Source: a virus
Taxonomy: Duplodnaviria; Heunggongvirae; Uroviricota; Caudoviricetes
DNA: 36,573 bases
Virus record (IMG/VR): IMGVR_UViG_2728369393_000013
Direction: 5' to 3' (one strand)
The notes under the pieces were generated by a model. The model did not search any database and was not told the DNA's origin. It saw only the letters and a program-made list of their open reading frames with translations. A program made the translations under genes and the position numbers. Numbering within the stretch: position 1 is the stretch's first letter; each line of letters starts with the position of its first letter. Positions 2,063 through 28,898 of the stretch are shown in pieces.

Positions 2063-2097
2063 TCGAACAATGGCGACAACAATTTCCCATTGAAGCG

Positions 2098-3973: not shown

Positions 3974-4162
3974 TACGCATCTGATACCAGCCGTCGCTCA
4001 GTTTCTGACGAAACGCAGGGAGCTGTGTGGCCAGCGCCCGGATGGCTTCGGCCCCGTTTTCACACGAAGGTCGATGCGGCGGCCAAATCGTTGCAAATCC
4101 CCGTAAAGGCAGATGCGTGCCATGCCCGGTGACGCCAGAGGGAGTGTGTGCGTCGCTGCCAT
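3946..4162 (-). pseudogene. I: Lambda gpI-like tail tip assembly gene remnant: 5' part only, frameshifted, 3' end deleted
   Basis: Minus-strand translation from ATG at 4162 gives MAATHTLPLASPGMARICLYGDLQRFGRRIDL, shifts frame at a G4 run (4052-4055), then [36 protein letters not shown]; homology stops at about 3946. Confidence 0.7.
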
Positions 4163-4802
4163 TTGTCGGTATACCTCTCTCGTTTGCTCAGTTGTTCAGG
4201 AATATGGTGCAGCAGCTCGCCGTCACCACAGTAAATGGCGGCATGATTCGGCACCGATGAACCAAAACAGCACAGCAGCACATCGCCCGGCTGCGCCGCT
4301 GACAACGGCACCTGATACAGCCCTGTGGCCTCCAGATTATCCAGATAGAGATTCTGACCGTGACGCCACCAGTCATCCTCGCGGTGAAAATCCGGAATCT
4401 CAATCCCCGCCAGATGGTAAGCATCCCGGAACAGCGTGTAACAGTCCGTCACCCCGTGCTCAAAGCGCCGCCCGGTAAGATGCGGCACACAGCGGAACTT
4501 GTGAATCGCCCCCGGCAGACCAGCCACCACGGCAAATCACTCTGCACCTGCAGCCGCCGGTCAGCCTCACTCAGCCAGGGCAGACCACCGGGATGACTGT
4601 GGACCAGCGCCACAATCTCACCCTGCATTTGTGCACGCAACCAGTCCTCCGGCGACATCCGGAAATACTCCTCCGGCTCACCGGAGATATTCACGCAGGG
4701 GAAATATCTTTCCCCCTCCGGCGTTCTCACTACGAAGCCGCACGACTCCGCTGGCGCACATCGTCGGGCGTGCGCCAGAATCGCTGATTCTGTCTCTGTC
4801 AT
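4060..4802 (-). pseudogene. K: Lambda gpK-like tail tip protein (NlpC/P60-type), frameshifted near 4500
   Basis: Two overlapping minus ORFs (4449-4802 and 4060-4530) carry N- and C-terminal halves of a gpK-like protein (ESCGFVV...HSHPGG and IHKFRCVPHLTGRRFEHGVTDCY). Confidence 0.75.
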
Positions 4803-4807
4803 GGGAT

Positions 4808-5506
4808 TTACTGCGAAAGTTTGTTAATGGAAAGGAAGCCGCCAAAGTTGCCGACATTATTGCGAAACTTACAGCCACTCAGGCATTTGCTGCATTTATC
4901 CTTCGTGATATCGGACGTCGGCTGGTCATATTCATCCGCGACCGCCGGACCGTGATAACCGCACTCATCACCGCGATAGGTCCAGGTGCAGGTATTAGCC
5001 AGCATGATGCGCCCCGGAAAAACGGCACCATCCGTTTCAGTCGGCGTGGACAGTACAAAGGAGGCACTGACCGCGCTCAGTTCGCTGCACTGCTCGATGC
5101 GCCAGCGGCTAATCACCTCCTGCTCCGGATCGGCGTCGCTGTTTCCGTTGACGAAGTTCACCGCATCCAGAAAACGGGCATAAACCTTACGCCTGACCAC
5201 CGTTCCGCCGACCAGACTCTGTAGATCTTCCGCCATCCCGGTGACCATGCCATACAGGTTAGAAACCGTCAGCGTGGGGCGCGTACTGGTGCCTTTGCCA
5301 TTCAGTTCGAAACCACTCCCCTGAATGGGATACGCCTGATACTGTCGCCCCTGCCAGGTGACCGGCTCACCTTTTTCGTTCTGCTCATTACAGAAAAAAT
5401 AACGTTCTCCACCAACCTCTGTCAGATCGATTTCCCAGAGCACCACGCTGGCAGACTGCTCCGCACGGGTGCATTCATTCAGTGTTTCCTGTCGGATATC
5501 CTGCAT
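4808..5506 (-). CDS. L: Lambda gpL-like tail tip assembly protein (232 aa)
   Basis: Length and position between M and K as in lambda; Cys-rich C-terminus; synteny. Confidence 0.75.
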   Translation of the reverse strand: MQDIRQETLNECTRAEQSASVVLWEIDLTEVGGERYFFCNEQNEKGEPVTWQGRQYQAYPIQGSGFELNGKGTSTRPTLTVSNLYGMVTGMAEDLQSLVGGTVVRRKVYARFLDAVNFVNGNSDADPEQEVISRWRIEQCSELSAVSASFVLSTPTETDGAVFPGRIMLANTCTWTYRGDECGYHGPAVADEYDQPTSDITKDKCSKCLSGCKFRNNVGNFGGFLSINKLSQ

Positions 5507-5835
5507 CAGTTCACCACCTGTTCAAACTCTGCGCTGAACTCAACACGCAGCATACTGACCCGCGACGACCATTTTGCGCAGGTCACCTTTATCTGCCGCC
5601 ACTCATAAGGCGGCGTCCACAGAAAGGATTTCCAGCCACCGTGCTCTTCCAGAAACGACTCCAGTACCGTGGCCTCCTCACGGGGGACAGAAAGCGTCAC
5701 GCTGTACGTTTTCAGGTTGGCATTCAGCCCGGCAGGCGCTCGCTGGGAATAGCCATCACCAAAGCGCACCTTTCTTACAGAAGGGGCCGAAGCCACATCC
5801 ATACCGGGTTTCACTTTCCAGCGGAAGGTCTTCAT
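5506..5835 (-). CDS. M: Lambda gpM-like minor tail protein (109 aa)
   Basis: Size and position immediately downstream of the tape measure gene; synteny. Confidence 0.75.
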   Translation of the reverse strand: MKTFRWKVKPGMDVASAPSVRKVRFGDGYSQRAPAGLNANLKTYSVTLSVPREEATVLESFLEEHGGWKSFLWTPPYEWRQIKVTCAKWSSRVSMLRVEFSAEFEQVVN

Positions 5836-8391
5836 CGTCCACCTCCGGAGAACAGGCCACCATCACGCATCTGTGTCTGAATTTCATCACGGGCACCCTT
5901 GCGGGCCATGTCATACACCGCCTTCAGAGCAGCCGGACCTATCTGCCCGTTCGTGCCGTCGTTGTTAATCACCACATGGTTATTCTGCTCAAACGTCCCG
6001 GACGCCTGCGACCGGCTGTCTGCCATGCTGCCCGGTGTACCGACATAACCGCCGGTGGCATAGCCGCGCATCAGCCGGTAAAGATTCCCCACGCCAATCC
6101 GGCTGGTTGCCTCCTTCGTGAAGACAAACTCACCACGGTGAACAATCCCCGCTGGCTCATATTTGCCGCCGGTTCCCGTAAATCCTCCGGTTGCAAAATG
6201 GAATTTCGCCGCAGCGGCCTGAATGGCTGTACCGCCTGACGCGGATGCGCCGACACCAACAGCCCCGCCAATGGCGCTGCCGATACTCCCGACAATCCCC
6301 ACCATTGCCTGCTTAAGCAGAATTTCTGTCATCATGGACAGCACGGAACGGGTGAAGCTGCGCCAGTTCTGCTCACTGCCGGTCAGCATCGCCGCCATAT
6401 TCTGTGCAATACCATCAAAGGTCTGCGTGGCTGCACTTTTTACCTGCGACATACTGTCCGTGGCGCTCTCTTCCCACTCACTCCAGCCGGACTTCAGGCC
6501 TGCCATCCAGTTCCCGCGAAGCTGGTCTTCAGCCGCCCAGGTCTTTTTCTGCTCTGACATGACGTTATTCAGCGCCAGCGGATTATCGCCATACTGTTCC
6601 TTCAGGCGCTGTTCCGTGGCTTCCCGTTCTGCCTGCCGGTCAGTCAGCCCCGGCTTTTCGCATCAATGGCGGCCCGTTTTGCCCGTTGCTGCTGTGCGAA
6701 TTTATCCGCCTGCTGCGCCAGCGCGTTCAGGTGCTCCTGATACGTAACCTTGTCGCCAAGTGCAGCCAGCTGGCGTTTGTACTCCAGCGTCTCATCTTTA
6801 TGCGCCAGCAGGGATTTCTCCTGTGCAGACAGCTGGCGACGTTGCGCCGCCTCCTCCAGTACCGCGAACTGACTCTCCGCCTTCCACAAATCCCGGCGCT
6901 GCTGGCTGATTTTCTCATTTGCTCCGGCATGCTTCTCCAGCGTCCGGAGTTCAGCCTGAAGCGTCAGCAGGGCAGCATGAGCACTGTCTTCCTGACGATC
7001 GCCCGCAGACATCTTCACGCCGGACTGTTTCGGCTTTCTCAGCGTCGCTTCATAGTCCTTTTTCGCCGCCGCCATCAGCGTGTTGTAATCTGCCTGCAGA
7101 ATTTTCCCGTCCTTCAGTGCCTTGTTCAGTTCTTCCTGACGGGCGGTATATTTCTCCAGCGGCGTCTGCAGCCGTTCGTAAGCTTTCTGCGCCTCTTCGG
7201 TATATTTCAGCCGTGACGCTTCAGTATCGCTCTGCTGCTGCGCATTTTTGTCCTGTTGACTCTGCTGTTCAGCCTTCTTTCTCGCGGCTTCAAGCGCAAG
7301 ACGGGCCTTTTCACGATCATCCCAGTAACGCGCCCGCGCTTCATCGTTAACAAAATAATCATCCTTGCGCAGACTCCAGATGTCGTCCGCTTTCTTAAAC
7401 GCAGCCTCTGCCTTAATCAGCATCTCCTGAGCGGTATCAGGACGACCAATATCCAGCACCGCATCCCACATGGATTTGAATGCCCGCGCTGTCCTGTCTG
7501 CCCAGGTCTCCAGCGTACCCATGTTCTCTTTCAGGCGGCGGGTCTGGTCATCAAACCCTTTCGTCGCGGCCTCGTTCGCCGCCTGCAATGCCCCGGCTTC
7601 ATCGCCGGAACGCTGCAACTGAGCAACATACGCAATCTGCTCCGCCGTCACGTTATGGAACTGGCGTGCCATCGCTGTCAGCCCTGACGTCGGGTCTGTG
7701 GTCAGCTTCCGAAGGCTTCAGCGACCTTGTCCACCTCCACGCCGGATGCAGAGGAGAAACGCGCCACACTCTGGCTGATGGATGCAATCTGAGCCTCACC
7801 GCTTACTCCCGCCTTAACCAGTGCGCTGAGTGACTCGCTGGTCTGGTTAAACGTCAGCCCTGCCGCCTGCCCGGCTCTGGACAGGACCAGCATACGATCT
7901 GCCGTCAGACCCGACTGATTGCCGGAAAGGACAAGCGTTTTGTTGAAATCGGACAGGGTTGAGTTGCCCTGATACCAGGCATACGCCAGCGCACCGGTCG
8001 CCACCGCCAGCGAGGTGGCCCCGACCATCGGCAGGGTGATCGCACCGGCAAGCCCCCGGAACATGGGGATCATCCCGCCGAAGGAGTCCTTCACCTGCCC
8101 CCCCTGTTGCAGCAGGATCAGCCACGGACTTTGCCCGCCTGCAAGCTGCGTGGCCACGTCAGTGAACTGCGCAGGCAGCATACGCATGGCGGCTTTATAC
8201 TGCCCGACGGAAATTCCCGCTTTCTGTGCAGCCAGCGCCTGCCGGTTCATCGACTGTTCAACGACTGCCGCTGTTTTTTTCGCATCACTTTCCGTACCGG
8301 AAAAATGACGCCTGACTCTGGCCATCTGCTCGTCAAATCTGGCCGCATCCAGACTCAAATCAACGACCAGATCGCCTACCGGTTCAGCCAT
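5832..8391 (-). pseudogene. H: Lambda gpH-like tail tape measure gene broken into three frames (8391-7702, 7672-6644, 6560-5832)
   Basis: N-terminal MAEPVGDLVVDLSLDAARFDEQ, middle MARQFHNV...coiled-coil Ala/Gln/Lys-rich, C-terminal MSEQKKTW...GGR; frame changes at AA-for-AAA near 7690 and G4-for-G5 near 6612. Confidence 0.8.
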
Positions 8392-11730: not shown

Positions 11731-14321
<2,591 letters not shown>

Positions 14322-14347
<26 letters not shown>

Positions 14348-14670
14348 TCAGCAACCCCGGTATCAGTTCATCCAGTGCGGCTGCTTTGTTCATGGCTTTG
14401 ATGATATCCCGTTTCAGGAAATCAACATGTCGGTTTTCCAGTTCCGGAAAACGCCGCTGCACCGACAGGGGGATCCCGTCGAGAATACTGGCAATTTCAC
14501 CTGCGATCCGCGACAGCACGAAAGTACAGAATGCGGTTTCCACCACTTCAGCGGAGTCTCTGGCATTCTTCAGCTCCTGTGCGTCGGCCTGCGCACGCGT
14601 AAGTCGATGGCGTTCGTACTCAATAGTCCCTGGCTGGAGATCTGTCTCGCTGTCCTGCCTCAGTTCTTCA
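14322..14670 (-). pseudogene. Nu1: Terminase small subunit Nu1, C-terminal part, separated from its N-terminus by IS66-family insertion
   Basis: ...EELRQDSETDLQPGTIEYERHRLTRAQADAQELKNARD... continues the frame interrupted at 17203. Confidence 0.8.
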
Positions 14671-14755
14671 GTAAGCGTAAACTGACCGCCGTATGTAGCC
14701 ATCAGACGAGAATTGGTAACTTAGACGCCCATCTGATATAGACGGACATCTAAGT

Positions 14756-15181
14756 ATGGAATTACAGGACTGGCGAAAAGAACCTCGTAAAAACTATTCG
14801 AATGAATTCAAACTTCGTATGGTGGAACTGGCATCACAACCTGGAGCTTGTGTTGCACAGATTGCACGTGAAAATGGCGTCAATGATAATGTTATTTTCA
14901 AATGGCTCAGGCTCTGGCAGAACGAAGGGCGTGTTTCGCGGCGTCTTCCGGTAACGACCTCTTCTGACACTGGCGTTGAATTATTACCTGTAGAAATAAC
15001 GCCGGATGAGCAGAAAGAACCTGTGGCGGCCATTGCGCCGTCTTTATCCACTTCCACTCAGACCAGAGTCAGTGCCAGTTCCTGCAAGGTGGAATTCCGT
15101 CACGGTAACATGACGCTGGAAAATCCATCGCCAGAGCTGCTCACGGTGTTGATCCGTGAACTGACCGGGAGGGGAAGATGA
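14756..15181 (+). CDS. IS66-family accessory protein Orf1 (TnpA-like), 141 aa
   Basis: First ORF of IS66-type operon, overlaps next ORF by ATGA. Confidence 0.75.
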   Translation: MELQDWRKEPRKNYSNEFKLRMVELASQPGACVAQIARENGVNDNVIFKWLRLWQNEGRVSRRLPVTTSSDTGVELLPVEITPDEQKEPVAAIAPSLSTSTQTRVSASSCKVEFRHGNMTLENPSPELLTVLIRELTGRGR

Positions 15182-15528
15182 TCTCACTCCCATCAGGTAC
15201 CCGTATCTGGCTCGTTGCCGGCGTTACCGATATGCGTAAATCCTTCAACGGACTGGGAGAACAGGTACAACATGTGCTGAATGATAATCCCTTCTCCGGT
15301 CACCTGTTTATCTTCCGTGGCCGACGGGGTGACACCGTCAAAATTCTTTGGGCTGATGCTGATGGTCTGTGCCTGTTCACCAAACGCCTGGAGGAAGGCC
15401 AGTTTATCTGGCCTGCGGTACGTGACGGCAAGGTATCCATTACCCGCTCGCAACTGGCAATGCTCCTCGATAAGCTGGACTGGCGTCAGCCAAAAACATC
15501 CAGCCGTAACTCACTGACAATGTTGTAA
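15178..15528 (+). CDS. IS66-family Orf2 (TnpB-like), 116 aa
   Basis: Conserved IS66 Orf2 sequence (ISLPSGTRIWLVAGVTDMRKSFNGL...). Confidence 0.8.
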   Translation: MISLPSGTRIWLVAGVTDMRKSFNGLGEQVQHVLNDNPFSGHLFIFRGRRGDTVKILWADADGLCLFTKRLEEGQFIWPAVRDGKVSITRSQLAMLLDKLDWRQPKTSSRNSLTML

Positions 15529-15558
15529 AAAACTCCTGACCGCATTATAAAAACGGTC

Positions 15559-17172
15559 ATGAGTCAGAAATACCTCATTCGCATCGCAGAGCTGGAAAGA
15601 TTGCTCTCTGAGCAGGCTGAAGCCCTCCGTCAGAAAGACCAGCAACTGAGTCTGGTTGAAGAGACGGAAGCCTTCCTGCGCTCTGCACTGACACGTGCCG
15701 AAGAAAAGATCGAAGAAGATGAACGGGAAATAGAACATCTGCGGGCTCAGATAGAAAAACTGCGCCGGATGCTGTTCGGTACCCGTTCTGAAAAACTGCG
15801 TCGTGAAGTTGAACTGGCTGAGGCTCTGCTGAAACAACGTGAACAGGACAGCGATCGTTACAGTGGGCGGGAAGACGATCCTCAGGTTCCCCGCCAGTTG
15901 CGACAGTCGCGCCATCGTCGTCCGTTACCGGCACACCTTCCCCGAGAAATACACCGCCTGGAGCCAGAAGAAAGCTGTTGCCCGGAGTGTGGCGGTGAGC
16001 TGGATTATCTGGGGGAAGTCAGCGCTGAACAGCTGGAACTGGTGAGCAGTGCCCTGAAAGTGATCCGCACAGAACGGGTAAAAAAAGCCTGTACAAAATG
16101 TGACTGTATTGTTGAAGCACCGGCGCCGTCCCGCCCGATAGAGCGTGGTATCGCGGGCCCCGGATTACTTGCCCGCGTGTTAACGGGAAAATACTGCGAA
16201 CATCTGCCACTGTATCGTCAGAGTGAAATCTTTGCCCGCCAGGGTGTCGAACTGAGCCGGGCCTTACTCTCCAACTGGGTTGACGCGTGCTGCCAGTTAA
16301 TGACACCGGTGAATGATGCCCTGTACCGTTATGTAATGAACACCCGCAAGGTTCACACTGATGACACACCGGTAAAGGTACTGGCACCGGGTCAGAAAAA
16401 GGCGAAAACAGGGCGTATCTGGACGTATGTCCGGGATGATCGCAATGTGGGTTCGTCATCTCCTCCAGCGGTCTGGTTCGCGTACTCGCCGAACCGGCAG
16501 GGGAAACACCCGGAGCAACACCTCCGCCCCTTCCGGGGTATCCTGCAGGCGGATGCGTTCACAGGTTACGACAGGTTGTTCAGTGCAGAACGTGAAGGTG
16601 GTGCACTGACAGAAGTTGCGTGCTGGGCCCATGCCCGGCGAAAAATCCACGATGTATACATCAGCAGCAAAAGTGCGACGGCAGAAGAAGCCCTGAAGCG
16701 AATCAGTGAACTGTACGCCATCGAGGATGAAATACGGGGATTACCGGAGTCAGAGCGTCTTGCCGTCAGGCAGCAGCGAAGCAAAGTGTTACTGACGTCG
16801 CTGCATGAATGGATGGTGGAGAAGAATGGTACGCTGTCGAAAAAATCCAGACTGGGCGAAGCGTTCAGCTATGTACTGAATCAGTGGGATGCCCTCTGTT
16901 ATTACAGTGATGACGGTCTGGCGGAGGCGGATAATAATGCTGCGGAAAGAGCGCTTCGTGCAGTCTGTCTCGGAAAGAAAAAGTTTATGTTCTTTGGCAG
17001 CGATCACGGCGGCGAGCGTGGAGCACTGTTGTACGGGCTGATCGGCACCTGCCGTCTGAACGGTATCGATCCGGAAGCGTATCTGCGCCATATCCTGAGC
17101 GTACTGCCGGAATGGCCTTCCAACCGAGTTGATGAACTCCTGCCATGGAACGTAGTACTCACCAATAAATAA
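15559..17172 (+). CDS. IS66-family transposase Orf3 (TnpC), 537 aa
   Basis: N-terminal coiled coil, CxxC...CxxC zinc motif (CPECGG...CTKCDC), DDE-type core; stop 30 bp before right IR. Confidence 0.85.
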   Translation: MSQKYLIRIAELERLLSEQAEALRQKDQQLSLVEETEAFLRSALTRAEEKIEEDEREIEHLRAQIEKLRRMLFGTRSEKLRREVELAEALLKQREQDSDRYSGREDDPQVPRQLRQSRHRRPLPAHLPREIHRLEPEESCCPECGGELDYLGEVSAEQLELVSSALKVIRTERVKKACTKCDCIVEAPAPSRPIERGIAGPGLLARVLTGKYCEHLPLYRQSEIFARQGVELSRALLSNWVDACCQLMTPVNDALYRYVMNTRKVHTDDTPVKVLAPGQKKAKTGRIWTYVRDDRNVGSSSPPAVWFAYSPNRQGKHPEQHLRPFRGILQADAFTGYDRLFSAEREGGALTEVACWAHARRKIHDVYISSKSATAEEALKRISELYAIEDEIRGLPESERLAVRQQRSKVLLTSLHEWMVEKNGTLSKKSRLGEAFSYVLNQWDALCYYSDDGLAEADNNAAERALRAVCLGKKKFMFFGSDHGGERGALLYGLIGTCRLNGIDPEAYLRHILSVLPEWPSNRVDELLPWNVVLTNK

Positions 17173-17202
17173 GCGTCAATACGGTGCTCCGTTGACGCTT
17201 AC

Positions 17203-17407
17203 GTTCTTCAACTTCCCGGCGCAGCTTTTCGTTCTCAATTTCAGCATCCCTTTCGGCATACCATTTTATGGCGGCGGCAGAGTCATAAAGTACCTCATTA
17301 CCCTTGCCACCACCCCGCAGAACGGGCATTCCCTGCTCCTGCCAGTTCTGAATGGTACGGATACTCGCGCCGAAAATGTCAGCCAGCTGCTTTTTGTTGA
17401 CTTCCAT
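17203..17407 (-). pseudogene. Nu1: Terminase small subunit Nu1, N-terminal part (winged-helix DNA-binding domain) up to IS66 junction
   Basis: MEVNKKQLADIFGASIRTIQNWQEQGMPVLRGGGKGNEVLYDSAA...EKLRREVEE then reads into the IS. Confidence 0.8.
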
Positions 17408-17584
17408 TGTTCATTCCACGGACAAAAACAGAGAAAGGAAACGACAGAGGCCAAAAAGCCCGTTTTCAGCACCTGTCGTTTCCTTTCTTTTCAGGGGGTG
17501 TTTTAAATAAAAACATTAGGTTACGGCGAAGAAGAACGGAAACGCCTTAAACCGGAAAATTTTCATAAATAGTGAAAAACCGCG

Positions 17585-17596
17585 AGGTCGCCGCCC
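17585..17596 (-). other. Lambda-type cosN cohesive-end site (12-nt overhang sequence GGGCGGCGACCT on minus strand), with cosB/cosQ-like flanks about 17410-17700
   Basis: Plus strand AGGTCGCCGCCC preceded by CGCGAGG and followed by CGTAACCTGTCGGATC, the reverse complement of the lambda cos junction as recalled; lies upstream of Nu1. Confidence 0.8.
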
Positions 17597-17795
17597 CGTA
17601 ACCTGTCGGATCGCCGGAAAGGACCCGCAAAATGATAATAATTATCATCTACATGTCACAACGTGCATCTACGCCATCAAACCACGTCAAATAATCAATT
17701 ATGACGCAGGTATCGTATTAATTGATCTGCATCAACTTAACGTAAAAACAACTTCAGACAATACAAATCAGCGACACTGAATACGGGGCAACCTC

Positions 17796-17990
17796 ATGTC
17801 AACGAAGAACAGAACCTGCAGAACAACAACCCGCAACATCCGCTTTCCTAACCAAATGATTGAACAAATTAACATCGCTCTTGAGCAAAAAGGGTCTGGG
17901 AATTTCTCAGCCTGGGTCATTGAAGCCTGCCGTCGGAGACTAACGTCAGAAAAGAGAGCATATACATCAATCCAAAGTGATGATGGATGA
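17796..17990 (+). CDS. Small ribbon-helix-helix (Arc/CopG-like) DNA-binding protein, 64 aa
   Basis: RNIRFPNQMIEQINIALEQKGSGNFSAWVIEACRRRL matches beta-strand/helix/helix pattern of Arc-type repressors. Confidence 0.45.
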   Translation: MSTKNRTCRTTTRNIRFPNQMIEQINIALEQKGSGNFSAWVIEACRRRLTSEKRAYTSIQSDDG

Positions 17991-18240
17991 ACATCCCGGT
18001 TTCTTTACCTCCCCTCCCACCCCGCACAGGACTGGCGAGCGTGTGGGACAAATATGTGAGTCATAAACGCCTTATCCTCAGAAATGCAGTTGGCATCCGA
18101 ACAGGACGATATTGTAAATTCACCTAATTACGAGGCATTGCAGTAGTTGAATTGTAGTTCTGTATTAGCCTGACAGTGACAGAATGCGATATTGACTCTG
18201 TCACAGGTGAAATAGTTTGAATGGTTAGCAGTTATGGTGA

Positions 18241-18447
18241 TCAGTCAACCACCAGGGAATAATCCTTCGAATTCTTATCGTGCTTCACCAACGCTGCCTC
18301 AATTGCCCTGAATGCTTCCAGAGACACTTGATGTTCTATACATGCAATTACAACATCCGGATAACTCATAGAAATGGTGCTAGTGAGCATAGTTTTTACA
18401 CGGACCTGATCCAGGGATGAGTCATCAGTGTATTGATCTTTATGCAT
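18241..18447 (-). CDS. Hypothetical small prophage protein (68 aa)
   Basis: ORF only; position corresponds to ynfO/ydfO region of Qin-type prophages. Confidence 0.35.
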
Positions 18448-18742
18448 TTTGTCGCTCCATGCGTTTGCTCTTCACTTGCGGCTAAAAATATAACGTCAAA
18501 TCACTCAGCATGAAAGTGTGAAAGTTTCAGCGCGTTTCCCTTACATAATCTGTCGTTTGTATTCTCTCCAGGCATACCGAAAAGACTAGGTATTGTCACA
18601 CAACCAATACCACCGACTATCGAGATTTATATCTATTCGGTAATGTTTAAATATAACAAAACCCCGTAAAAACGAGGTTTATGGGTAAATTGTATTGTTG
18701 AATAGCATCTGACAAGAAATTGATGCTAATACTATAAACAGA

Positions 18743-18919
18743 CTAGATTAAATCAATCTTGATATCATAGCTTTCAAGACCAGTCATTTTTTCCCGTGCA
18801 GTAAACTGGATACTGGTAACTTCTTTCCCGGTCTTTTTCTTAAGCTCAATGATTTTTTTTGTTATATATTCAGAAATATCTGCTTCTGTTTTTGTTTTTA
18901 ACTCTTCAATGTTCATCAT
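18743..18919 (-). CDS. gnsB: GnsA/GnsB-family small protein (about 57 aa)
   Basis: MNIEELKTKTEADISEYITKKIIELKKKTGKEVTSIQFTAREKMTGLESYDIKI resembles GnsB; AGAGGA SD before tandem ATGs at 18919/18916. Confidence 0.7.
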   Translation of the reverse strand: MMNIEELKTKTEADISEYITKKIIELKKKTGKEVTSIQFTAREKMTGLESYDIKIDLI

Positions 18920-19088
18920 TTCCTCTTTTAGTCTGTTATGACTTTCCTGGTACACAGTAGTGTCAATTATATGGAGCAAACGTATAAAAGATAAGATGAA
19001 ACATCGCAATAATCAACATACGACGGTCTAAATTTCACACAAACAGATAAAGATGATTATCATTTATTATCAATGCATTAGAATCAAA

Positions 19089-19319
19089 TCAATTCAAGAG
19101 TCTCATTGCTGCTTCCAGAATTTCTTCTGAAGTTACATGTCGATCCGCTGCTACATAAATGACTTTATGATCTCCGGTCAGAGATGGAAACCCTGCAGCC
19201 ATTACAGTGAGGTGTGTTGTTTCGCCATTTGGATATTCACGCATGATGGTGTTAACTCCGGTCATCACTGGCACTACCATTGCTGGTTCAGAGTTAAAAA
19301 AAACTATTATTTTTTTCAT
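19089..19319 (-). CDS. YnfN-like small prophage protein
   Basis: ORF with start assumed at MKKIIVFF; synteny between gnsB and cspI. Confidence 0.4.
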   Translation of the reverse strand: MKKIIVFFNSEPAMVVPVMTGVNTIMREYPNGETTHLTVMAAGFPSLTGDHKVIYVAADRHVTSEEILEAAMRLLN

Positions 19320-19365
19320 AATGTTACCGTAATATGTGAGTATCCATCGACTAGACACTAAGCAA

Positions 19366-19390
19366 AAAAGCTCCCGAAGGAGCCTTCATT
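19366..19390 (-). terminator. Rho-independent terminator (minus strand) downstream of cspI
   Basis: Plus AAAAAAGCTCCCGAAGGAGC: on minus strand a GCTCC/GGAGC hairpin followed by T6. Confidence 0.55.
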
Positions 19391-19590
19391 TTCACTTTCT
19401 TAAATCTAACGACAGACGGCTAACATTTAAGTATTGTGAAATATTATCAAATGCAATCATCATTGATTTACAAAAGATACATTTTGCCCCGAAAGGATTC
19501 CTGTCAGAAACATCAAAAGATGATGTTCTATACTGAGAACCATGGCAACACGGGCATCTAAAGTGAATATGGTTTGTAATATTTTCTACC

Positions 19591-19803
19591 TCAAAGTGCC
19601 ACAACATGAACAGCCGCGGGGCCTTTAGGTCCGTTCTCAATACCAAATTCGACTTCCTGATTCTCAGTTAACGTTTTGAAATCGTTGCTCTGAATAGCTG
19701 AGAAATGGACAAACACATCTTTGCTACCATCTTTCGGCGTGATGAAACCAAAACCTTTTTCAGGGTTAAACCATTTCACTAAACCAGTCATTTTGTTAGA
19801 CAT
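19591..19803 (-). CDS. cspI: Cold shock protein, CspA family (70 aa)
   Basis: [38 protein letters not shown]... canonical CSD with RNP motifs. Confidence 0.9.
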
Positions 19804-20166
19804 CATTATTACCTTTTGAAGAAGTTAGCCCTTGGGCAGAATGGTCCGAAAAAAAATATCAGAGAGAAAAACCAACAAGGAAATCTCAAGAGGTACAAAT
19901 AATAAAATTATAACAATGACTGCTTCAGATAATTTTGTAACAAACCAGAACACCATTAACGCATGATTAACCAACCATAGCAAGGATTACTTTTGTAAAG
20001 AAAAACACACGAATGAAACAATAGCTTTATTTATTAATAAAACGTGTCATTCTGTCTAATGACCTTTTATCTTACCCTTAAGATTTCAAGGATTTTGACT
20101 CATGGAAGAGTCCTTTTTATTTAAATTTCACATTCAGCGCTAAAAATAATCCGATTTAATATTAAT

Positions 20167-21194
<1,028 letters not shown>

Positions 21195-21307
21195 GGATAT
21201 TTATCAGGATTTATCGGCTTCAAATCCCCGGATATGTTAAATCTTACCTCACCAGTGATGGGCACTGGCGGGAGGAGGATGTCAATCTGATAAACACAGA
21301 GGCGACT

Positions 21308-21568
21308 ATGGATTACACAAATCTACCAAAACAAACTTTTGCTGATTTAATCGCACTCAGGCAAGCAGTCGTAGCTCTAATCAACTTGTTGCCGGAGAAG
21401 GAAAAGGAATTAGTTAAAGCGCTTCTTAACAGAACTGCCGCCGATTTTTCATCATATCCACTGACAGATGACCTTGCGGACCTTCCTGAATTAATTGCAG
21501 CGTCCGCCAATAAGCTTACTGAAGAGATTTACCCTCCTCAAAAATCTTCACAAAATTCCTGCGAGTAA
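21308..21568 (+). CDS. Hypothetical small acidic protein (86 aa) on opposite strand inside lysis cassette
   Basis: ATG preceded by GAGG; followed 20 bp downstream by strong hairpin plus T8 terminator. Confidence 0.4.
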   Translation: MDYTNLPKQTFADLIALRQAVVALINLLPEKEKELVKALLNRTAADFSSYPLTDDLADLPELIAASANKLTEEIYPPQKSSQNSCE

Positions 21569-22088
21569 CTTCAATGCAATAATCGTAAAACGCCGCAAAC
21601 TGCTCATCGCGGCGTTTTTTTTCATCTTCAGAAGGAATCAGCACCGACAATTTTTTATTCAGATCAGCGACGCTGCCCTCCAGTTTTTCAATGGGCGATT
21701 CAATATCATCTTTTTCTGACCGCAATGCCGTCGGTGGCGTCTTCAGAGAACCAGTAATTCTTCCCGGTAGCTTTCCTTTGTAGGTTATCCACACATTCTG
21801 CGCCTCTAAAATTATGGGGCGCTTTTCCGGCGACTGCTCATCCCCTTCACATAACCCGGCAGCAACATCCAGGAAGACCTGTCTGATGCTCCTTCTGGCT
21901 GCTGCCTCATAAAACTCCAGCGCGGCACCTTCAACACGGTCCAGCGAGATGTCCAAGTCAAAAATTTCACCGTCAAAGTGTTTTTTGTCCCGTAAGGCTA
22001 CAGTTACCGCCACTTTATTCTCAAAATTGCGAACTCCTTTCACAACCAGTTCATAGTCTTGAGTCATTGGATTACTCTCTTCTCGCAA
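21516..22088 (-). CDS. Hypothetical protein between holin and endolysin (190 aa as listed; YdfR-position gene)
   Basis: Long ORF in lysis operon orientation overlapping holin stop; start uncertain (M1 or M8); 3' coding overlaps terminator hairpin. Confidence 0.45.
21590..21626 (+). terminator. Rho-independent terminator (hairpin ACGCCGC...GCGGCGT followed by T8), potentially bidirectional
   Basis: AAAACGCCGCAAACTGCTCATCGCGGCGTTTTTTTT seen directly. Confidence 0.65.
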
Positions 22089-22287
22089 CCTTACGCCTGT
22101 CTTCTTTAATCTTGAAATAAAGGTTTGTCAGATATGTCAGCAGGCCAAAAACCAGACTACCCAGCACACCGATTGCAGCCCACTGTGACGGAGTTACTTT
22201 ATCGAGTAACTGCAATGCCCAGAAACCAGCATTACCAGCCGATGTGCCATAGGCGATACCTGTTGTTAACTTATCCATTGATTTCAT
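22072..22287 (-). CDS. essQ: Lambdoid class II holin (71 aa)
   Basis: [66 protein letters not shown]: two TM segments, charged C-terminus. Confidence 0.8.
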
Positions 22288-22505
22288 ATCCTCACCCCGA
22301 TGTACACAGATGGTGCAATATGTTTGAAAAGATCGGAGTCTATGGGTTAGTTTTTATAGCAAACGTTGTTCTCAACGGCGCTAAAAAACAGACACATTAA
22401 AAATGTGGGTAATTATTTTAAAAGAAAATCATATATTAAATAATAATACGAGATATGTTTTCATATTTAGTGTACTGTATACGGCCATTTATACAGGAAA
22501 AGCCT

Positions 22506-22676
22506 ATGTCAGAACGTAAAGACTCAAAATCACGCCGTAATTATCTCGTTAAATGTTCCTGCCCAAACTGCACCCAAGAGTCAGAACACAGTTTTTCAAG
22601 AGTACAAAAAGGTGCTCTTTTGATCTGCCCTCATTGCAACAAAGTATTCCAGACAAATCTTAAAGCTGTAGCTTGA
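22506..22676 (+). CDS. Small zinc-ribbon protein (56 aa, CxxC...CxxC)
   Basis: MSERKDSKSRRNYLVKCSCPNCTQESEHSFSRVQKGALLICPHCNKVF; AGGA SD upstream of ATG at 22506. Confidence 0.45.
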   Translation: MSERKDSKSRRNYLVKCSCPNCTQESEHSFSRVQKGALLICPHCNKVFQTNLKAVA

Positions 22677-22735
22677 TTGATTTTATTCGTAACAAGTATT
22701 TTTTATATTTTAATAACATATTTAAAGCAGATAAT

Positions 22736-22760
22736 AAAAAACCCGCCTGAGCGGGTTTAA
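22736..22760 (-). terminator. Rho-independent terminator for cspB (minus strand; weaker on plus)
   Basis: AAAAACCCGCCTGAGCGGGTTT: CCCGC/GCGGG stem with T-run on minus strand. Confidence 0.65.
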
Positions 22761-23039
22761 TATTGTGGTGCTTTTTGTGGGAGTCATCCACTTACGCACT
22801 TTGTTTTGCTATGCTAGCAGTTAGCTTCTGCTGTAAAACTATTCATGCAGCAAACCTGCACTTCACCACAATGGTTAGCATACTTTTCCTGATTAAGTTA
22901 TTGCCAAATATGCTGGCCATTGTTTCATGTATTGGATCTCCTTACTATTTATTAAAGAGATCCAATATTCACCACTCTGTCTGTATCTCCACTCAGGCAT
23001 CAGCCTTCTTCGTTATCGTATACAGACAAACTATTAATT

Positions 23040-23255
23040 TTAATCAGTAATTATGACATTTGCTGCTGCAGGACCTTTAGCACCACTCTCTACAGAGAAG
23101 GTAACCTTTTGACCTTCAAATAAGGTTCGAAAATTATCATTCTGAATCGCAGAAAAATGCACAAACACATCTTTACTACCATCAACAGGAGAAATAAAGC
23201 CAAAACCTTTATCAGCGTTAAACCATTTTACTAAACCAGTCATTTTATTTGACAT
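23040..23255 (-). CDS. cspB: Cold shock protein CspB-like (71 aa)
   Basis: [53 protein letters not shown]... Confidence 0.9.
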
Positions 23256-23555
23256 TCTACATTCCTTAACTTGAGCCTTTCGGCATAAATGGCTTGTATA
23301 ACAGAAACGACTTCGTACTTAATTGGAGAGACTCAAAGAAGGAATAAGTGAATAACACCTGAAATGAGAACTGCTTTAGTAAACTACTTCGTATATCGTC
23401 TGTTCTTCAAACCGACGCAATCATTAACGCATAGTTGAACATATGAAGCAATGTTTATTTTAGACATCCAGCCATCTTCAACCCCATCAAAAAACTATAG
23501 CTTTCTTCAGGAACGTGTGTATAGTGCGCCAAGTTATCAGTATTAAGGAATTTTT

Positions 23556-23768
23556 TTGTCCCGTAAAATGACAGGAATTGTCAAAACCTTTGACGGCAAA
23601 AGCGGCAAGGGTCTTATCACCCCATCCGATGGTCGTATCGATGTCCAGCTTCATGTTTCAGCGCTCAATCTCCGCGATGCAGAAGAAATTACCACCGGAT
23701 TACGCGTGGAATTTTGCCGGATAAATGCTCTGCGTGGCCCTTCAGCTGCCAATGTTTACCTTTCATGA
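23556..23768 (+). CDS. cspF: Cold shock domain protein CspF/CspH-like (70 aa)
   Basis: [41 protein letters not shown]...; divergent from cspB as in Qin. Confidence 0.85.
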
Positions 23769-24060
23769 GCTATATTAAAGCTTTAATTTCAGGCCCCATC
23801 GGATCACACATGGAGAGTTTTTATGAATAACCCCGTCTGTCTTGATGACTGGTTGACTGGCTTTAAAAGCTTATGCTGTACTTTGGCCGTAATAGCTCTG
23901 CTAATAATATAATAAGCAGACTCATTGTGTTTAGGGACATTGTACTGGAAGAAAACATTTTAAACATCAGGCAAATAACCAAGTCACCAGCTAAATAATA
24001 AGTTAACAGACATGAGTCCCGGGATGAGATTCAACATTACCATTGCCCCATTTAAAGCAC

Positions 24061-24090
24061 AAAACCCGCTCATCAGCGGGTTTTCTACTT
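24061..24090 (+). terminator. Rho-independent terminator (CCCGC/GCGGG hairpin plus T-rich tail)
   Basis: AAAACCCGCTCATCAGCGGGTTTTCTACTTTTT seen directly. Confidence 0.55.
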
Positions 24091-24537
24091 TTTCTTAACC
24101 TCGGGTATACAAAGCCCATCGTTGAAAAAATTTTATCCATATTTTTTGAAAAATGCAAGCATCACGTTACCATCTTCATTGAAAAACCTTTATCGTGTTA
24201 CTTTTATCAATTGCACTTCAGTATAGAGTTATCCCAGACAGCACTTTAAAGACTTCTACATTACACACACCTTGTCTCCCCTTCTCGTCATATCTGCAAG
24301 ACCGATATGCATGACGCAGTACATACGCTGAACTGCTTTATCCATCTGCATATTCTAGTGCTAAAGCGACTTCAGTAGCAGAAGCAAAATTCTGCTACTG
24401 TGCCAAACAGGAGTAAACGTCATTTTATGTAATGTTGATTGAGTGGTCATAGTATCACCTCAATAACAACTCTCCGCCCTATCATTGAAAGCATATCTGC
24501 TATAATTAAAAAGCCACTTAACATCAGGACTTCAAAC

Positions 24538-24723
24538 ATGACTTCAAATCAATCTGAAAACGAAATAGTTAATACTGTCAAAAAATATGCATCATGTGCT
24601 GACGATGCTTTGCAGGGAGGCAAAGAAAACGTTAAAGATAAATTTAGAAATTATCCACTGACTAGCGTGGTGGTTGCTCTAAGCATAGGGTTAACGCTTG
24701 GTTTTATTATTGGCAGAAAATAA
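24538..24723 (+). CDS. Small tail-anchored membrane protein, DUF883 (ElaB/YqjD)-like C-terminus (61 aa)
   Basis: Hydrophilic N-terminus then NYPLTSVVVALSIGLTLGFIIGRK TM anchor; ATG at 24538; hairpin terminator downstream. Confidence 0.45.
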   Translation: MTSNQSENEIVNTVKKYASCADDALQGGKENVKDKFRNYPLTSVVVALSIGLTLGFIIGRK

Positions 24724-24775
24724 TCTTAAGCCTCCCATAAGTCGTACACAATCACATCTGCCAATTAATGTTCCA

Positions 24776-24808
24776 TTAGTAAAAAACCACCTCCTGTGGA
24801 GGTGGTTT
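24776..24808 (-). terminator. Rho-independent terminator, strong on minus strand (CCACCTCC/GGAGGTGG hairpin plus T6), weak on plus
   Basis: AAAAACCACCTCCTGTGGAGGTGGTTT seen directly. Confidence 0.6.
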
Positions 24809-24859
24809 AAGGATAGCAACAAAACACAACCTACTTTAAACGGCTATATTCTGCTATAT

Positions 24860-24979
24860 CTAAATAATAGGATCTCTTTTATCATCCGGTGAAAAAGGGT
24901 TCAATGGTTGCCCCTCATCAGGACGCTCAACGGGCTCATCATCAGGCTTACGGTCATCAAAATCTGGATGTTCTGACAT
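24860..24979 (-). CDS. Candidate micro-ORF, acidic proline-rich (39 aa)
   Basis: ATG preceded by GGGTGGA SD; MSEHPDFDDRKPDDEPVERPDEGQPLNPFSPDDKRDPII; followed by minus-strand terminator. Confidence 0.3.
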   Translation of the reverse strand: MSEHPDFDDRKPDDEPVERPDEGQPLNPFSPDDKRDPII

Positions 24980-25014
24980 ATTCCACCCTAGTATTTTTAT
25001 GCAGGAAAGATTAT

Positions 25015-25122
25015 TTACTCTTTCCGGTTGTCTTTTTTATTATCCTTACCCTTACTATCCTCATTGTTTTTATTCCTGTCATGAGATTTTTCATTTGAAT
25101 CACTTACATATAATGTATTCAT
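25015..25122 (-). CDS. Candidate micro-ORF, Lys/Asn/Asp-rich hydrophilic (35 aa)
   Basis: ATG preceded by GGAG SD; MNTLYVSDSNEKSHDRNKNNEDSKGKDNKKDNRKE. Confidence 0.3.
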   Translation of the reverse strand: MNTLYVSDSNEKSHDRNKNNEDSKGKDNKKDNRKE

Positions 25123-25883
25123 GGGGACTCCAGTTTTTTAACAGCACAATGCTGTATCTGTAATTATAGATGCAATTAATCATTATGATATGTATGTTTC
25201 ATGCACAAATCAGAAACGCATCTAGTGCTTTAATTAATATGGATTTTATTGCTGTAGATTTACAAAAATTTTCATAATTAACCAGCAATATAAGACAAAT
25301 ATCTCATAACATGAGGAAAATCAAGCTAATTTAAAGCAATTTATAATTTTCATCCTACTGTTTTCCCTGCACTGCCAACACAAGTTTCATCGCAACACTC
25401 TGACAAGACACCTATAAAATCAGTTTCGTTATCACCTTAATTTTCTTCATGGGTAACAAACCGGTAATACATCGATAGCCAGATTTCCGGCGTAAGCCAT
25501 TTATTTGCAGCCTGATTGATGCGCGTTACTGTTACCTCTTCCCTGCATCAGGATGGCTTCTCCAGATGATATGGTTAATCACACTGGAACATTCACGCAT
25601 AACCGTTTCCTTCATATCCTGCCGTTTTAGCATGTCTTTTCCCCTTCTTGTTAATATCAATAACTAACACAAATCTAAAAAAGCCAGCAATGTAAAAAAA
25701 CTGCATTCACGGCAACCATAATGGTTACCGTTCTGCACAAAGTTTATGTCCACAAAAAAACCACTCTGCGCGGCTTATTGATATTTTCCACCGGTATGCA
25801 TATAAGGCTCATCATTGGAAAACTCTTTGCACGTTTCCTTAGAAAATACAATCGTTATGTCGCCATCGTTCGGTGAAAATCAT

Positions 25884-26636
25884 TTATCTCGTCACTTTTC
25901 TTAATTGCACCTCAGCATATGCTTCTTCCTGCCAGCACTTTGTAACCAGTTTATCAATGACATCTGCATATCCTTTGTACCACTGATAATCCGTCAGGTC
26001 TGGTACCAGCTTCTGGACATGACACCGCGCCAGTGTCGTTGGTAAACGACTAAACCGGTTTCCATTGCAACGCCCACAAACCTTATAAACAGGCGTGCTA
26101 TGAAGCCGGGTTCTTTTTTCATCCAGGACAATACCTTTCCCCTTACACCCTCTGCACGCTGTGCTGACTTCTCCCTTACCATGGCAATGCTGACATAGTT
26201 CCTTCACCCACTCTTCCTTGATAACAGATTCCCCACTTCTGGAGTGTTTCACCACTTCGCGCAATACATTATGAAATCCAGTACCAGCACAATACTCACA
26301 GCGAGCCTTACTTGCCGCAGACCTGGAATAATCAGCAAAGGCAAAATTCACAAGGTAAGGGATGATCTGTAACCGGATTTCTTCACTCAATTTGTTCAAT
26401 GTCGGATTATCCATTGCCATCGCGTAATTGAGCAGACCTTCAATCGCAAACTGAGGATCCTGAACACCAACTTTTGCCAGGAATAAGGCAAAACCAAGCG
26501 GAGCTTTCGACTGCACCATCCCCTGCGCAGCCATCACATCTGTTATTGTTAAACCACCCGAGCCTGTCGCCGGTGCGTCATCACTCAATTTTGGAGATTT
26601 TGGGGAGTAATATTTTGGTAAAGCTTCAAGGTTCAT
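25884..26636 (-). CDS. quuQ: Late-gene antiterminator Q (250 aa, zinc-finger type)
   Basis: Cys-rich motifs (CEYCAGTG, CQHCHGKG, CRGCKGKG, CGRCNG); length and position upstream of lysis region. Confidence 0.8.
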   Translation of the reverse strand: MNLEALPKYYSPKSPKLSDDAPATGSGGLTITDVMAAQGMVQSKAPLGFALFLAKVGVQDPQFAIEGLLNYAMAMDNPTLNKLSEEIRLQIIPYLVNFAFADYSRSAASKARCEYCAGTGFHNVLREVVKHSRSGESVIKEEWVKELCQHCHGKGEVSTACRGCKGKGIVLDEKRTRLHSTPVYKVCGRCNGNRFSRLPTTLARCHVQKLVPDLTDYQWYKGYADVIDKLVTKCWQEEAYAEVQLRKVTR

Positions 26637-26649
26637 GCTCGTTCTCCAC

Positions 26650-27645
26650 TTACGCCAGTACGCCTATTGCCAGCGCACGATCGATAAAACGAAATATCAG
26701 CTCCAGCTGGGAGCCATAATTCTCTTCAAATGCCACGGTATTCGCATGCAGCTCGTCGTGATGCTTTCTGCACAAAGGCAACACAAAAAGGTCATGCGCT
26801 TTTGTACCCATTCCACCCTGACCGTGGCCTATCAGGTGGTGGGGATCATCAGCGGGCTTTCCACAACATGCACACGGCTGTGTCTTAACCCAGCGCGTGT
26901 ACTTTTCATTAACCCAGCGGCGACGTTTTGGGCGTAACATAAAAGACTCCGGCGACTCCGGATCCACTTTCAGCGCCAGCACCTTTTTCGCTTTATCCTG
27001 GATGATGCTGGTGGCAGGAACCGAAGGCACAAGGTCACTTTCCCGGGTGACAGACGGCACAACAGGCTTCGGTAATCTCAGTGCCTTACGGGCTGCACTT
27101 TCCGGTAAGGCATCCGCCAGGTCATTACGAACCAGCCACCAGCACAGTTCCGGCATTGTCACTACGTGACTGTCATCAAAACCGAGATCCCGACGCACGA
27201 CAGATAACACCCAGTGGGCACAGTTATCCGTTGCCATTGATTCCAGCCGTTCCGTGAACTGATCACGCAACTGGTTATCGCAGTGCCAACACAGACGGAT
27301 TGCGCCCGGCGCGTGTCGCATTGTGGTCATGTTCTCGCTGTGCCAGTCGGAATGAGGCCACTGACAGCCCTTTTCACGAAGTAACCAGCTTTCAAGACAT
27401 TCCACGCCACCAGCACGACGGATCACTGCCTCATTGCGGAACACGGCCCGAACGGCAGGATCATCCGCCAGCGGTTGTGATGCCGCCGGAACGGCACCAC
27501 TGGCGAAAGATGAATAACGTTCCGGCTCAGGCTCCAGCAGGACACGCCCCTGCATAAACAGGGGCATCAGCTCTGAACCTGGCCTGAACAATACGATCCC
27601 CATACGCGGGGCAATTTCAGGGGTCAGTAGTGCTCTCACGGTCAC
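26650..27645 (-). CDS. ydfU: DUF968-family protein (YdfU-like), C-terminal Cys/His-rich HNH-like region
   Basis: C-terminal CACCGKPADDPHHLIGHGQGGMGTKAHDLFVLPLCRKHHDELH; adjacent to Q as ydfU is in Qin. Confidence 0.6.
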   Translation of the reverse strand: MTVRALLTPEIAPRMGIVLFRPGSELMPLFMQGRVLLEPEPERYSSFASGAVPAASQPLADDPAVRAVFRNEAVIRRAGGVECLESWLLREKGCQWPHSDWHSENMTTMRHAPGAIRLCWHCDNQLRDQFTERLESMATDNCAHWVLSVVRRDLGFDDSHVVTMPELCWWLVRNDLADALPESAARKALRLPKPVVPSVTRESDLVPSVPATSIIQDKAKKVLALKVDPESPESFMLRPKRRRWVNEKYTRWVKTQPCACCGKPADDPHHLIGHGQGGMGTKAHDLFVLPLCRKHHDELHANTVAFEENYGSQLELIFRFIDRALAIGVLA

Positions 27646-27646
27646 C

Positions 27647-28522
27647 TCAATGAACGGTATCGAGCAGCTTTAACAGCTCAGGGAATCGGGATTCGAAGAA
27701 ATGCGGCTGCGTCTCGCGCGGATTTGCAGGACTGGTGATGTTCTTGCCGAACATGCAGCCTTTCGCCGTCAGCGACCAGAATTTTTTGATGTTGTTAATC
27801 GCGGTACGGCTGTATCGTTCGCGTTGTTCAACGATCCCCAGCTTCACCATCTGGTGATATGCCTGATTAGCCGTCAGGCGGATACCATACTGTTTCAGCA
27901 GTGCACTCAGCGACAGCGTGGGGCGACTTGAGCCATCAGGCGCGTCAGCAGGAGCATCAATGGCATAGCGCGGTGCCAGATTCGGTAAGCCAACAGCCTC
28001 CTGAAGCTTCTGACAGGCTCCAAGCACTGATGAGTTAGACAGGTTTAATTCCCGGCGCATAAAGTCCAGCAGGATCACGCCAGCCTGCATCTTGTCAGCA
28101 GCCTGCCCGGATAATTTTTCCGGTGTGCTGGTTACCATATCGAAAGTACGGATCACCTTCAGATGGAATGACGGGCTGATCCACATTGCATAGGCATACA
28201 CCAGTTCCTTGCAGACATACGTTCCTCCATTCCGCCCTTCTATTTTACTTACTGGTTTACTACCCAAATTTTGGGTAGTTTCATTGAATGAACCGACACC
28301 CAAATTTTGGGTATCGATCAATTCCTGAACCAGCTCAGTAATCTGTTGGCTGGAAAGAAACTTTCCCGGCTCCTTAGTTCTGGCATTTGCACCAGATGCA
28401 ACAGCAGCCCGATGCAGATCGTTCAGGCTGTAACGCCCATAAGCATCACGACGAACTTCAATACCATCAATGACCATCAGATTATTCATACTTCGTTTCT
28501 CCTCTTGATCAGGCGGCTGCAC
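27647..28522 (-). CDS. KilA-N domain protein, antirepressor-like (291 aa)
   Basis: N-terminal MVIDGIEVRRDAYGRYSLNDLHRAAV typical of KilA-N/APSES domain; internal TQNLG repeat. Confidence 0.55.
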   Translation of the reverse strand: MQPPDQEEKRSMNNLMVIDGIEVRRDAYGRYSLNDLHRAAVASGANARTKEPGKFLSSQQITELVQELIDTQNLGVGSFNETTQNLGSKPVSKIEGRNGGTYVCKELVYAYAMWISPSFHLKVIRTFDMVTSTPEKLSGQAADKMQAGVILLDFMRRELNLSNSSVLGACQKLQEAVGLPNLAPRYAIDAPADAPDGSSRPTLSLSALLKQYGIRLTANQAYHQMVKLGIVEQRERYSRTAINNIKKFWSLTAKGCMFGKNITSPANPRETQPHFFESRFPELLKLLDTVH

Positions 28523-28898
28523 CCGCCGTTTTCTCGTACTTACTGATAGTGATCTCGACCTTCCCTTCCGGGATAACCGGTCCCCACTCCACCAGCATTC
28601 TTTTCACCTGACTGTCGTCTTCCCACACACCCGCGTGGGTCAGGGCGTCAAACAGCGCCTTGTTATAGTTGTCCAGATCGCGGATCCGGTTATCCGGAGG
28701 AAACAACACGATCTCCACTGAAGCAGGTGCCGACGTTGGTTTCGGCAGACGACGTAACTGCTCAACTATTGCTGCACACGCCGCGCTCTGGAATTTGCGC
28801 CCCGCCGCGCTTATCAGGCTCTTACCTGCAAACGCCCCTTTGTTGGGGTGTCGCCAGTACGTGTTCACGCTGGGCGGAAAAGGCAGGATCAGCTTCAT
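28509..28898 (-). CDS. rusA: RusA-family Holliday junction resolvase (129 aa)
   Basis: Conserved DLDNYNKALFDALTHAGVWEDDSQV block and size. Confidence 0.8.
   Translation of the reverse strand: MKLILPFPPSVNTYWRHPNKGAFAGKSLISAAGRKFQSAACAAIVEQLRRLPKPTSAPASVEIVLFPPDNRIRDLDNYNKALFDALTHAGVWEDDSQVKRMLVEWGPVIPEGKVEITISKYEKTAGAAA

Follow-up and report, generated by a model that had tools for sequence, protein, structure and literature searches.

The window, the whole 36,573-nucleotide stretch of virus DNA analysed here, carries a terminase small subunit gene, Nu1, that is split by a mobile element. The locus raises the question of how the split arose and what it means for the prophage that carries it. 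We conclude, with a probability of about 0.96, that a single simple insertion placed an intact ISEc23 in codons 66-69 of Nu1, in a lambda-like prophage of EHEC O145:H25, with an 8-bp duplication, and that this insertion is one of several lesions. The element and its ends lie at the following positions.

14671 to 17202, plus strand: complete ISEc23 (IS66 family), 2,532 bp
14663 to 14670, no strand: left copy of the target-site duplication, GTTCTTCA, single-copy in intact Nu1 homologs
17203 to 17210, no strand: right copy of the target-site duplication, GTTCTTCA
14671 to 14694, plus strand: left inverted repeat (IRL) of ISEc23, GTAAGCGTAAACTGACCGCCGTAT, pairing with IRR at 20 of 24 positions
17179 to 17202, plus strand: right inverted repeat (IRR) of ISEc23, 24 nt, the reverse complement of ATACGGTGCTCCGTTGACGCTTAC

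A preliminary description of this DNA had proposed an 8-bp target duplication at the 14663 and 17210 flanks and inverted repeats at both ends of the element, and both proposals were confirmed. The duplication of GTTCTTCA is a perfect 8 bp and flush with both element ends, and no further base of repeat is present on either side. Duplications made by IS66 are reported to be 8 bp in size (PMC6778807). The chance of 8-bp identity at fixed positions is 4^-8, about 1.5e-5, and GTTCTTCA occurs only 4 times on the plus strand of the 36.6-kb window. The 24-nt inverted repeats are imperfect, complementary at 20/24 positions, and share the same opening 8 nt (GTAAGCGT). Terminal inverted repeats of the IS66 family are imperfect and about 20-30 bp long, and reportedly they typically start with GTAAGCG.

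Alignments of many unrelated loci began 10-19 nt before the end of the IS, as might be seen if the boundary of the IS were shifted or if it preferred a certain target sequence. The list of junction matches was ranked by coverage, which put chance-extended alignments at the top. Both readings were rejected after inspection of locus L005, where the element has the same 2,532-bp boundaries and a different duplication; the early starts are chance extensions.

Three genes fill the element.

14756 to 15181, plus strand: tnpA, 141 aa, HTH_Tnp_1 accessory protein (PF01527), WP_000422741.1 in RefSeq
15178 to 15528, plus strand: tnpB, 116 aa, TnpB_IS66 (PF05717), Pfam model positions 2-100 of 101
15559 to 17172, plus strand: tnpC, 537-aa DDE transposase, WP_032285709.1, with Pfam domains LZ_Tnp_IS66, zf-IS66, DDE_Tnp_IS66 and IS66_C

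The ORFs and their Pfam matches give the gene order tnpA-tnpB-tnpC, as required of the IS66 family, and the start of tnpB overlaps the stop of tnpA in the sequence ATGA (15178-15181). All three ORFs had been described as full length, and the Pfam models are indeed spanned end to end. In the tnpC product, DDE_Tnp_IS66 (PF03050) matches over model positions 1-283 of 284 (E=1.1e-96), and PF13005, PF13007 and PF13817 each exceed the gathering score. The earlier assignment to the IS66 family likewise stands: Pfam detects TnpB_IS66 and DDE_Tnp_IS66 together with zf-IS66, LZ_Tnp_IS66 and IS66_C, and RefSeq gives the ISEc23 label to copies that are 99.8-100% identical. Each of the IS66-family features examined here (TnpC domains, accessory genes, imperfect inverted repeats and 8-bp duplication) was present.

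The element is called ISEc23 after the RefSeq/PGAP labels; in RefSeq the near-identical copies bear the label 'IS66-like element ISEc23 family transposase' and are accompanied by annotated tnpA and tnpB genes. Under the ISfinder rule, isoforms are elements with >95% nucleotide or 98% amino-acid identity. ISEc23 of E. coli chromosomes and plasmids shares with this copy the length of 2,532 bp, 99.8-100% nucleotide identity, the tnpA-tnpB-tnpC layout and 8-bp duplications, and its TnpA and TnpB accessions are identical to those found here (WP_000422741.1 and WP_000624722.1). The sole difference is the insertion site, apart from slight variation in TnpC (WP_032285709.1 here, the commoner form being WP_000080195.1). 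The IS66 and IS679 prototypes are built alike, with three ORFs of which tnpA and tnpB overlap, a DDE transposase of the IS66 type and a duplication of 8 bp, but they are different members of the family, and ISEc23 is likened to them by organisation, not by sequence (Machida et al. 1984; Han et al. 2001, J Bacteriol 183:4296).

The interrupted gene and its neighbours lie on the opposite strand.

17203 to 17407, minus strand: Nu1 5′ fragment with codons 1-68 and one further nt, coding for the winged-HTH DNA-binding domain (Phage_Nu1 positions 1-72; 1J9I)
14322 to 14662, minus strand: Nu1 3′ fragment from the remainder of codon 69 through the stop, coding for the part that self-assembles and binds gpA (Phage_Nu1 positions 67-164)
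12423 to 14347, minus strand: gene A for the large terminase subunit, which overlaps Nu1 and follows it directly downstream
17408 to 17610, minus strand: lambda-type cos region, intact, with the R sites of cosB and with the cosN junction at 17596/17597

Nu1 is broken after codon 68 by 2,540 bp and is not an intact gene. Both fragments match the 164-position Pfam model of Nu1 (PF07471), over positions 1-72 and 67-164 respectively. The 68-residue chain of the Nu1 DNA-binding domain in the PDB (1J9I) aligns over residues 1-68, which is the extent of the N-terminal fragment. The claim that the DNA-binding N-terminus had been cut off from the C-terminus was thus correct, the split falling after the residue at which the 1J9I construct ends. 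The ORF that contains the 5′ fragment (17159-17407, 82 aa) consists of residues 1-68 followed by 14 residues encoded by the IS. On the other side, an ATG at 14702 opens an ORF of 126 aa in frame with the 3′ fragment (14702 down to 14322); this ATG lies within the IRL.

Excision of the IS and one copy of the duplication in silico, the check suggested in the preliminary description, gave a continuous Nu1 frame of 181 aa, so that the outcome named there as refuting, a frame left broken by excision, did not occur. The restored protein is identical to lambda Nu1 (NC_001416, 191-736) at 177/181 positions, the differences being A46V, D72A, T75A and I132L. When the flanks were compared with lambda by BLAST, they matched lambda 3279-388 and 395-1, and the two matches overlap by exactly the 8 duplicated bases. 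In a multiple alignment, TGAAGAAC is present once each in lambda nu1, in nohD of 95-3322 and in the ST131 homolog. Of 5,426 complete E. coli genomes, 3,925 contain the reconstructed 600-bp empty site without interruption, and its best match (99.7% over 600 bp) is annotated as an intact 546-bp nohD, or DNA-packaging, gene. Nu1 lies directly downstream of cos, and its 3′ end overlaps gene A. The restored protein thus has the length (181 aa), the place after cos and the gene A overlap of lambda Nu1 and of nohA and nohD of cryptic prophages, whereas the gene in the window, being broken after codon 68, is a pseudogene.

Other copies of ISEc23 were sought in the 5,426 complete E. coli genomes, where 3,333 records contain the element at ≥80% coverage; the best of these match at 99.8-100% over exactly positions 1-2532. 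Independent full-length copies with the same boundaries have their own 8-bp duplications: CGTCGGCC at locus L002, AGTAGTTC at L005 and TTTTTTTA at L011/L012. The copy in the window is identical at 2532/2532 positions to same-lineage copies with different duplications, such as that at L011/L012, and strain CFSAN004176 contains a second copy elsewhere in its genome that is 100% identical to the one in the window. Identical copies at different sites in the same lineage point to recent transposition, and so to recent activity of ISEc23, within the clone. Given its intact ORFs and ends and these identical copies, ISEc23 is probably competent for transposition. The copies at L008 and L016 have no duplications, as expected after recombination between IS copies.

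ST131 strain 2017_APHA has a second, independent ISEc23 in its Nu1 homolog, 73 bp away and in the same orientation. Because ISEc23 sites and Nu1 copies each number in the thousands among the 5,426 genomes, the two hits in Nu1 do not demonstrate a hotspot; by a rough estimate, two hits are within chance expectation.

A short match between the element and its target was also seen. Positions 15790-15813 of tnpC agree at 21/24 nt with the reverse complement of Nu1 17207-17230, which adjoins the insertion site, and both segments encode EKLRREVE. Among 1.7e8 comparisons of the IS with the rest of the window, no other match is as strong. A uniform model predicts about 0.035 such matches, and a 2-2.5-fold correction for real sequence, equal to the excess seen at lower thresholds, raises the expectation to roughly 0.1. 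Homology-guided targeting was rejected: the four other ISEc23 loci that could be scored (L005, L008, L011/L012 and L016) have only background similarity (15-17/24), and the Nu1 sequence at the match is ancestral, being the same in lambda. The match looks like a coincidence between two segments that encode coiled coils, and it is formally unexplained.

The window contains, letter for letter, a 4,614-bp stretch of CP014670.1 from EHEC O145:H25 strain CFSAN004177, and it is assigned to that strain. The exact junction was found only in assemblies of the O145:H25 lineage (CFSAN004176, CFSAN004177 and GCA_003015325.1), and among the 5,426 complete RefSeq genomes an identical junction is present in CFSAN004176 only. 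The insertion is already known, in that RefSeq marks both halves of Nu1 as pseudogene fragments; it involves a known IS, a known gene and a published genome. The halves are annotated on either side of the ISEc23 genes as "DNA-packaging protein, incomplete, missing N-terminus" and "terminase small subunit, incomplete, missing C-terminus". The preliminary description had noticed neither this public annotation nor the other inactivating lesions of the prophage.

Those lesions were read from collinearity with lambda and from the RefSeq annotation. A deletion of 3.87 kb in the head genes removes lambda 3280-7148, that is most of portal gene B followed by C, Nu3, D and E, and leaves a 4-nt overlap at window positions 11780-11783. 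A deletion in the tail genes (I′ to stf), at 3824-3945, cuts off I in its 3′ part, removes J and lom entirely and takes out the larger share of the side tail fibre genes. An IS600 of 1,264 bp with a 3-bp duplication lies within the tail-fibre assembly gene tfa (1696-2959). The lambda-like prophage is defective regardless of ISEc23, and with this insertion its structural lesions number at least four. As the prophage is without portal, protease, scaffold, decoration and capsid genes, the share of the Nu1 lesion in its phenotype is not separable. The cos region, in turn, is about 96% identical to that of lambda. Other IS-disrupted lambdoid prophages of EHEC (IS629 in O157 Sakai; IS600 in O145:H25) likewise combine IS elements with deletions in morphogenesis genes and are defective. 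The account of such prophages in the O145:H25 genome paper emphasises IS3-family elements (PMC5567499), whereas Nu1 in the window carries an element of the IS66 family.

Compared with sibling assemblies, gene A lacks 1 nt at 14294/5 and so reads as 60 aa plus 581 aa. In both CFSAN004176 and GCA_003015325.1 a further C is present and gene A is intact at 641 aa. Relative to CFSAN004176 the window has two substitutions and nine deletions of a single base, the deletions all falling in runs of C or G and including the one at 14294. Sequencing was by PacBio RS II with P4/C2 chemistry and Quiver consensus, and optical maps and read mapping served to check the assemblies (PMC5567499). The nine deletions are most likely consensus errors because of this chemistry and consensus method. 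A real frameshift in gene A was rejected, since the gene is intact in the sibling assemblies; the missing base is probably a PacBio homopolymer consensus error.

These single-base errors show that the assembly is not error-free, and the genome contains many IS and lambdoid prophage copies, so that an IS copy might have been misplaced in a repeat-rich prophage during long-read assembly. Such an artefact is extremely improbable. The same junctions and duplication occur in at least three separately assembled genomes, misassembly would not make a perfect 8-bp duplication of a sequence that is single-copy in the intact gene, and the published checks on the assemblies apply here also. The two halves of Nu1 might instead have been joined by homologous recombination between ISEc23 copies of different prophages. 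The strain has 14 prophages, most of them lambda-like (PMC5567499), and the duplication-free L008 and L016 copies indicate that IS-mediated rearrangements do occur. Recombination of this kind is nevertheless very unlikely at this locus, where identical 8-bp flanks, a single Nu1 frame and a lambda-collinear order cos-Nu1-A-W are those of an unrearranged primary insertion.

A further possibility concerns why the insertion has been kept: it might be useful, either by locking the prophage in the chromosome or through hindrance of superinfecting lambda-type phages by Nu1(1-68) and cosB. The Nu1 fragment does match an autonomously folding DNA-binding domain, the cos region is intact and close to that of lambda, and Nu1 was hit independently in the ST131 strain. 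The O145:H25 chromosomes each contain 101-102 IS, most of the elements lying in prophages, plasmids and integrative elements, and a role of IS in the fixation of mobile elements has been suggested (PMC5567499). Useful retention is all the same improbable, if slightly less so than the readings above. The prophage is already immobilised by two large deletions, the insertion is limited to one clone, the two Nu1 hits are within rough chance expectation, and no outward promoter-like site was found at the IS ends. In particular, none reads outward from the left IS end in the direction of gene A and the 3′ fragment of Nu1, the site counts being those of the shuffled expectation. IS-driven expression of the 3′ fragment and gene A was rejected for this reason, and for the same reason IS-driven expression of the 126-aa ORF is unsupported. 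It is very doubtful, too, that the 82-aa fragment, if expressed from the late operon beside the intact cos, acts as a dominant-negative or decoy against packaging by superinfecting lambda-type phages; were it to do so, an IS-truncated terminase subunit would be an accidental defence factor. We infer instead that the insertion is recent and either neutral or passively retained.

On the preferred reading, a single simple insertion that nothing observed contradicts, the course of events is as follows. The DDE transposase inserted ISEc23 into codons 66-69 of Nu1, and a staggered cut followed by repair duplicated the 8-bp target GTTCTTCA. Nu1 was thereby truncated past its 68-residue DNA-binding domain, with the self-assembly and gpA-binding part detached. 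In lambda terminase, Nu1 self-association and gpA binding lie outside the N-terminal domain that recognises cosB. The truncated protein would be predicted to keep cosB recognition and to lack the regions for self-association and gpA binding, so that the prophage would not assemble its own holoenzyme at cos. The Nu1 lesion alone would be enough to end cos-specific packaging of DNA by the prophage, and the split of Nu1 has probably cost the prophage its packaging function.

Annotators would do well to join the two Nu1 fragments into a single pseudogene, because the ORFs of 126 aa and 82 aa called there by some gene finders (L010) are artefacts of the split. The junction could also be used to mark the lineage of this clone. 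Beyond such bookkeeping the insertion has little significance, and it illustrates cleanly how a prophage in EHEC O145:H25 decays through IS insertion.

The prophage carries two large deletions relative to lambda, in addition to its insertions and the single-base differences discussed below. The features concerned are as follows (window positions; strand where it applies).

1696-2959: IS600 (IS3 family), 1,264 bp, inside the tail-fibre assembly gene
3824-3945: deletion of lambda ~14991-21244
11780-11783: deletion junction with a 4-nt overlap; lambda 3280-7148 missing
14322-14702 (-): 126-aa ORF in frame with the C-terminal part of Nu1; its ATG lies inside the left inverted repeat of the IS
17408-17610: intact lambda-type cos (cosN and the R sites of cosB), ~96% identical to lambda
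18000-31000: Qin-like lysis and cold-shock gene block, downstream of cos (RefSeq annotation)
1659, 4051, 4508, 6647, 7708, 10653, 14294, 31974, 32380: 1-nt deletions relative to CFSAN004176

The deletion at the 4-nt overlap removed most of the portal gene B, together with C, Nu3, D and E. Even without the Nu1 insertion, head assembly is impossible for this prophage. In the other deletion, J and lom are gone entirely, as are the 3′ part of I and the bulk of the side tail fibre genes; 122 nt lacking a lambda match remain there. The tail-fibre assembly gene is interrupted by IS600, which is flanked by a 3-bp duplication corresponding to lambda 22154-22156. IS600 is the expanded IS of the O145:H25 lineage, with more than 50 copies (PMC5567499).

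Each of the nine positions at which the window is 1 nt shorter than the sibling genome CFSAN004176 lies inside a C or G homopolymer run. The deletion at 14294 breaks the large terminase gene A into parts of 60 and 581 aa; the gene is intact (641 aa) in two sibling assemblies. All nine probably reflect errors in the PacBio consensus and not true sequence differences.

The 126-aa ORF is listed as a Phage_Nu1 protein by some gene callers (as at L010, a locus retrieved for comparison). An outward promoter-like signal for this ORF was looked for and not found. Separately, tnpC 15790-15813 and Nu1 17207-17230, which adjoins the insertion site, match in inverted orientation at 21 of 24 nt, and both encode EKLRREVE. 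No second match as strong was present between ISEc23 and the other 34 kb of the window, where ~0.1 would be expected. Nothing similar to the tnpC segment was seen at the four other ISEc23 loci scored. The match was set aside as coincidence.

An independent ISEc23 insertion was found in ST131 2017_APHA (NZ_CP051615.1; L002, 6220-8751), with the duplication CGTCGGCC. It sits in a Nu1 homolog belonging to a different lambdoid prophage, in the same orientation as the window copy and at a site 73 bp deeper in the gene. The 8-bp flanks of the copies at two further retrieved loci (L008, 613-3144; L016, 74-2605) do not match; this points to IS copies recombining with one another, or to deletion of adjacent DNA, in these related genomes.

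The block downstream of cos includes essQ, rrrQ, rzpQ, cspB/F/I, gnsB, ynfN and ydfK (RefSeq annotation). It is joined to a lambda-like morphogenesis block, and the prophage is therefore a mosaic. With its cos intact, the defective prophage could in principle still be cut or packaged in trans by a lambda-specificity terminase of another prophage.
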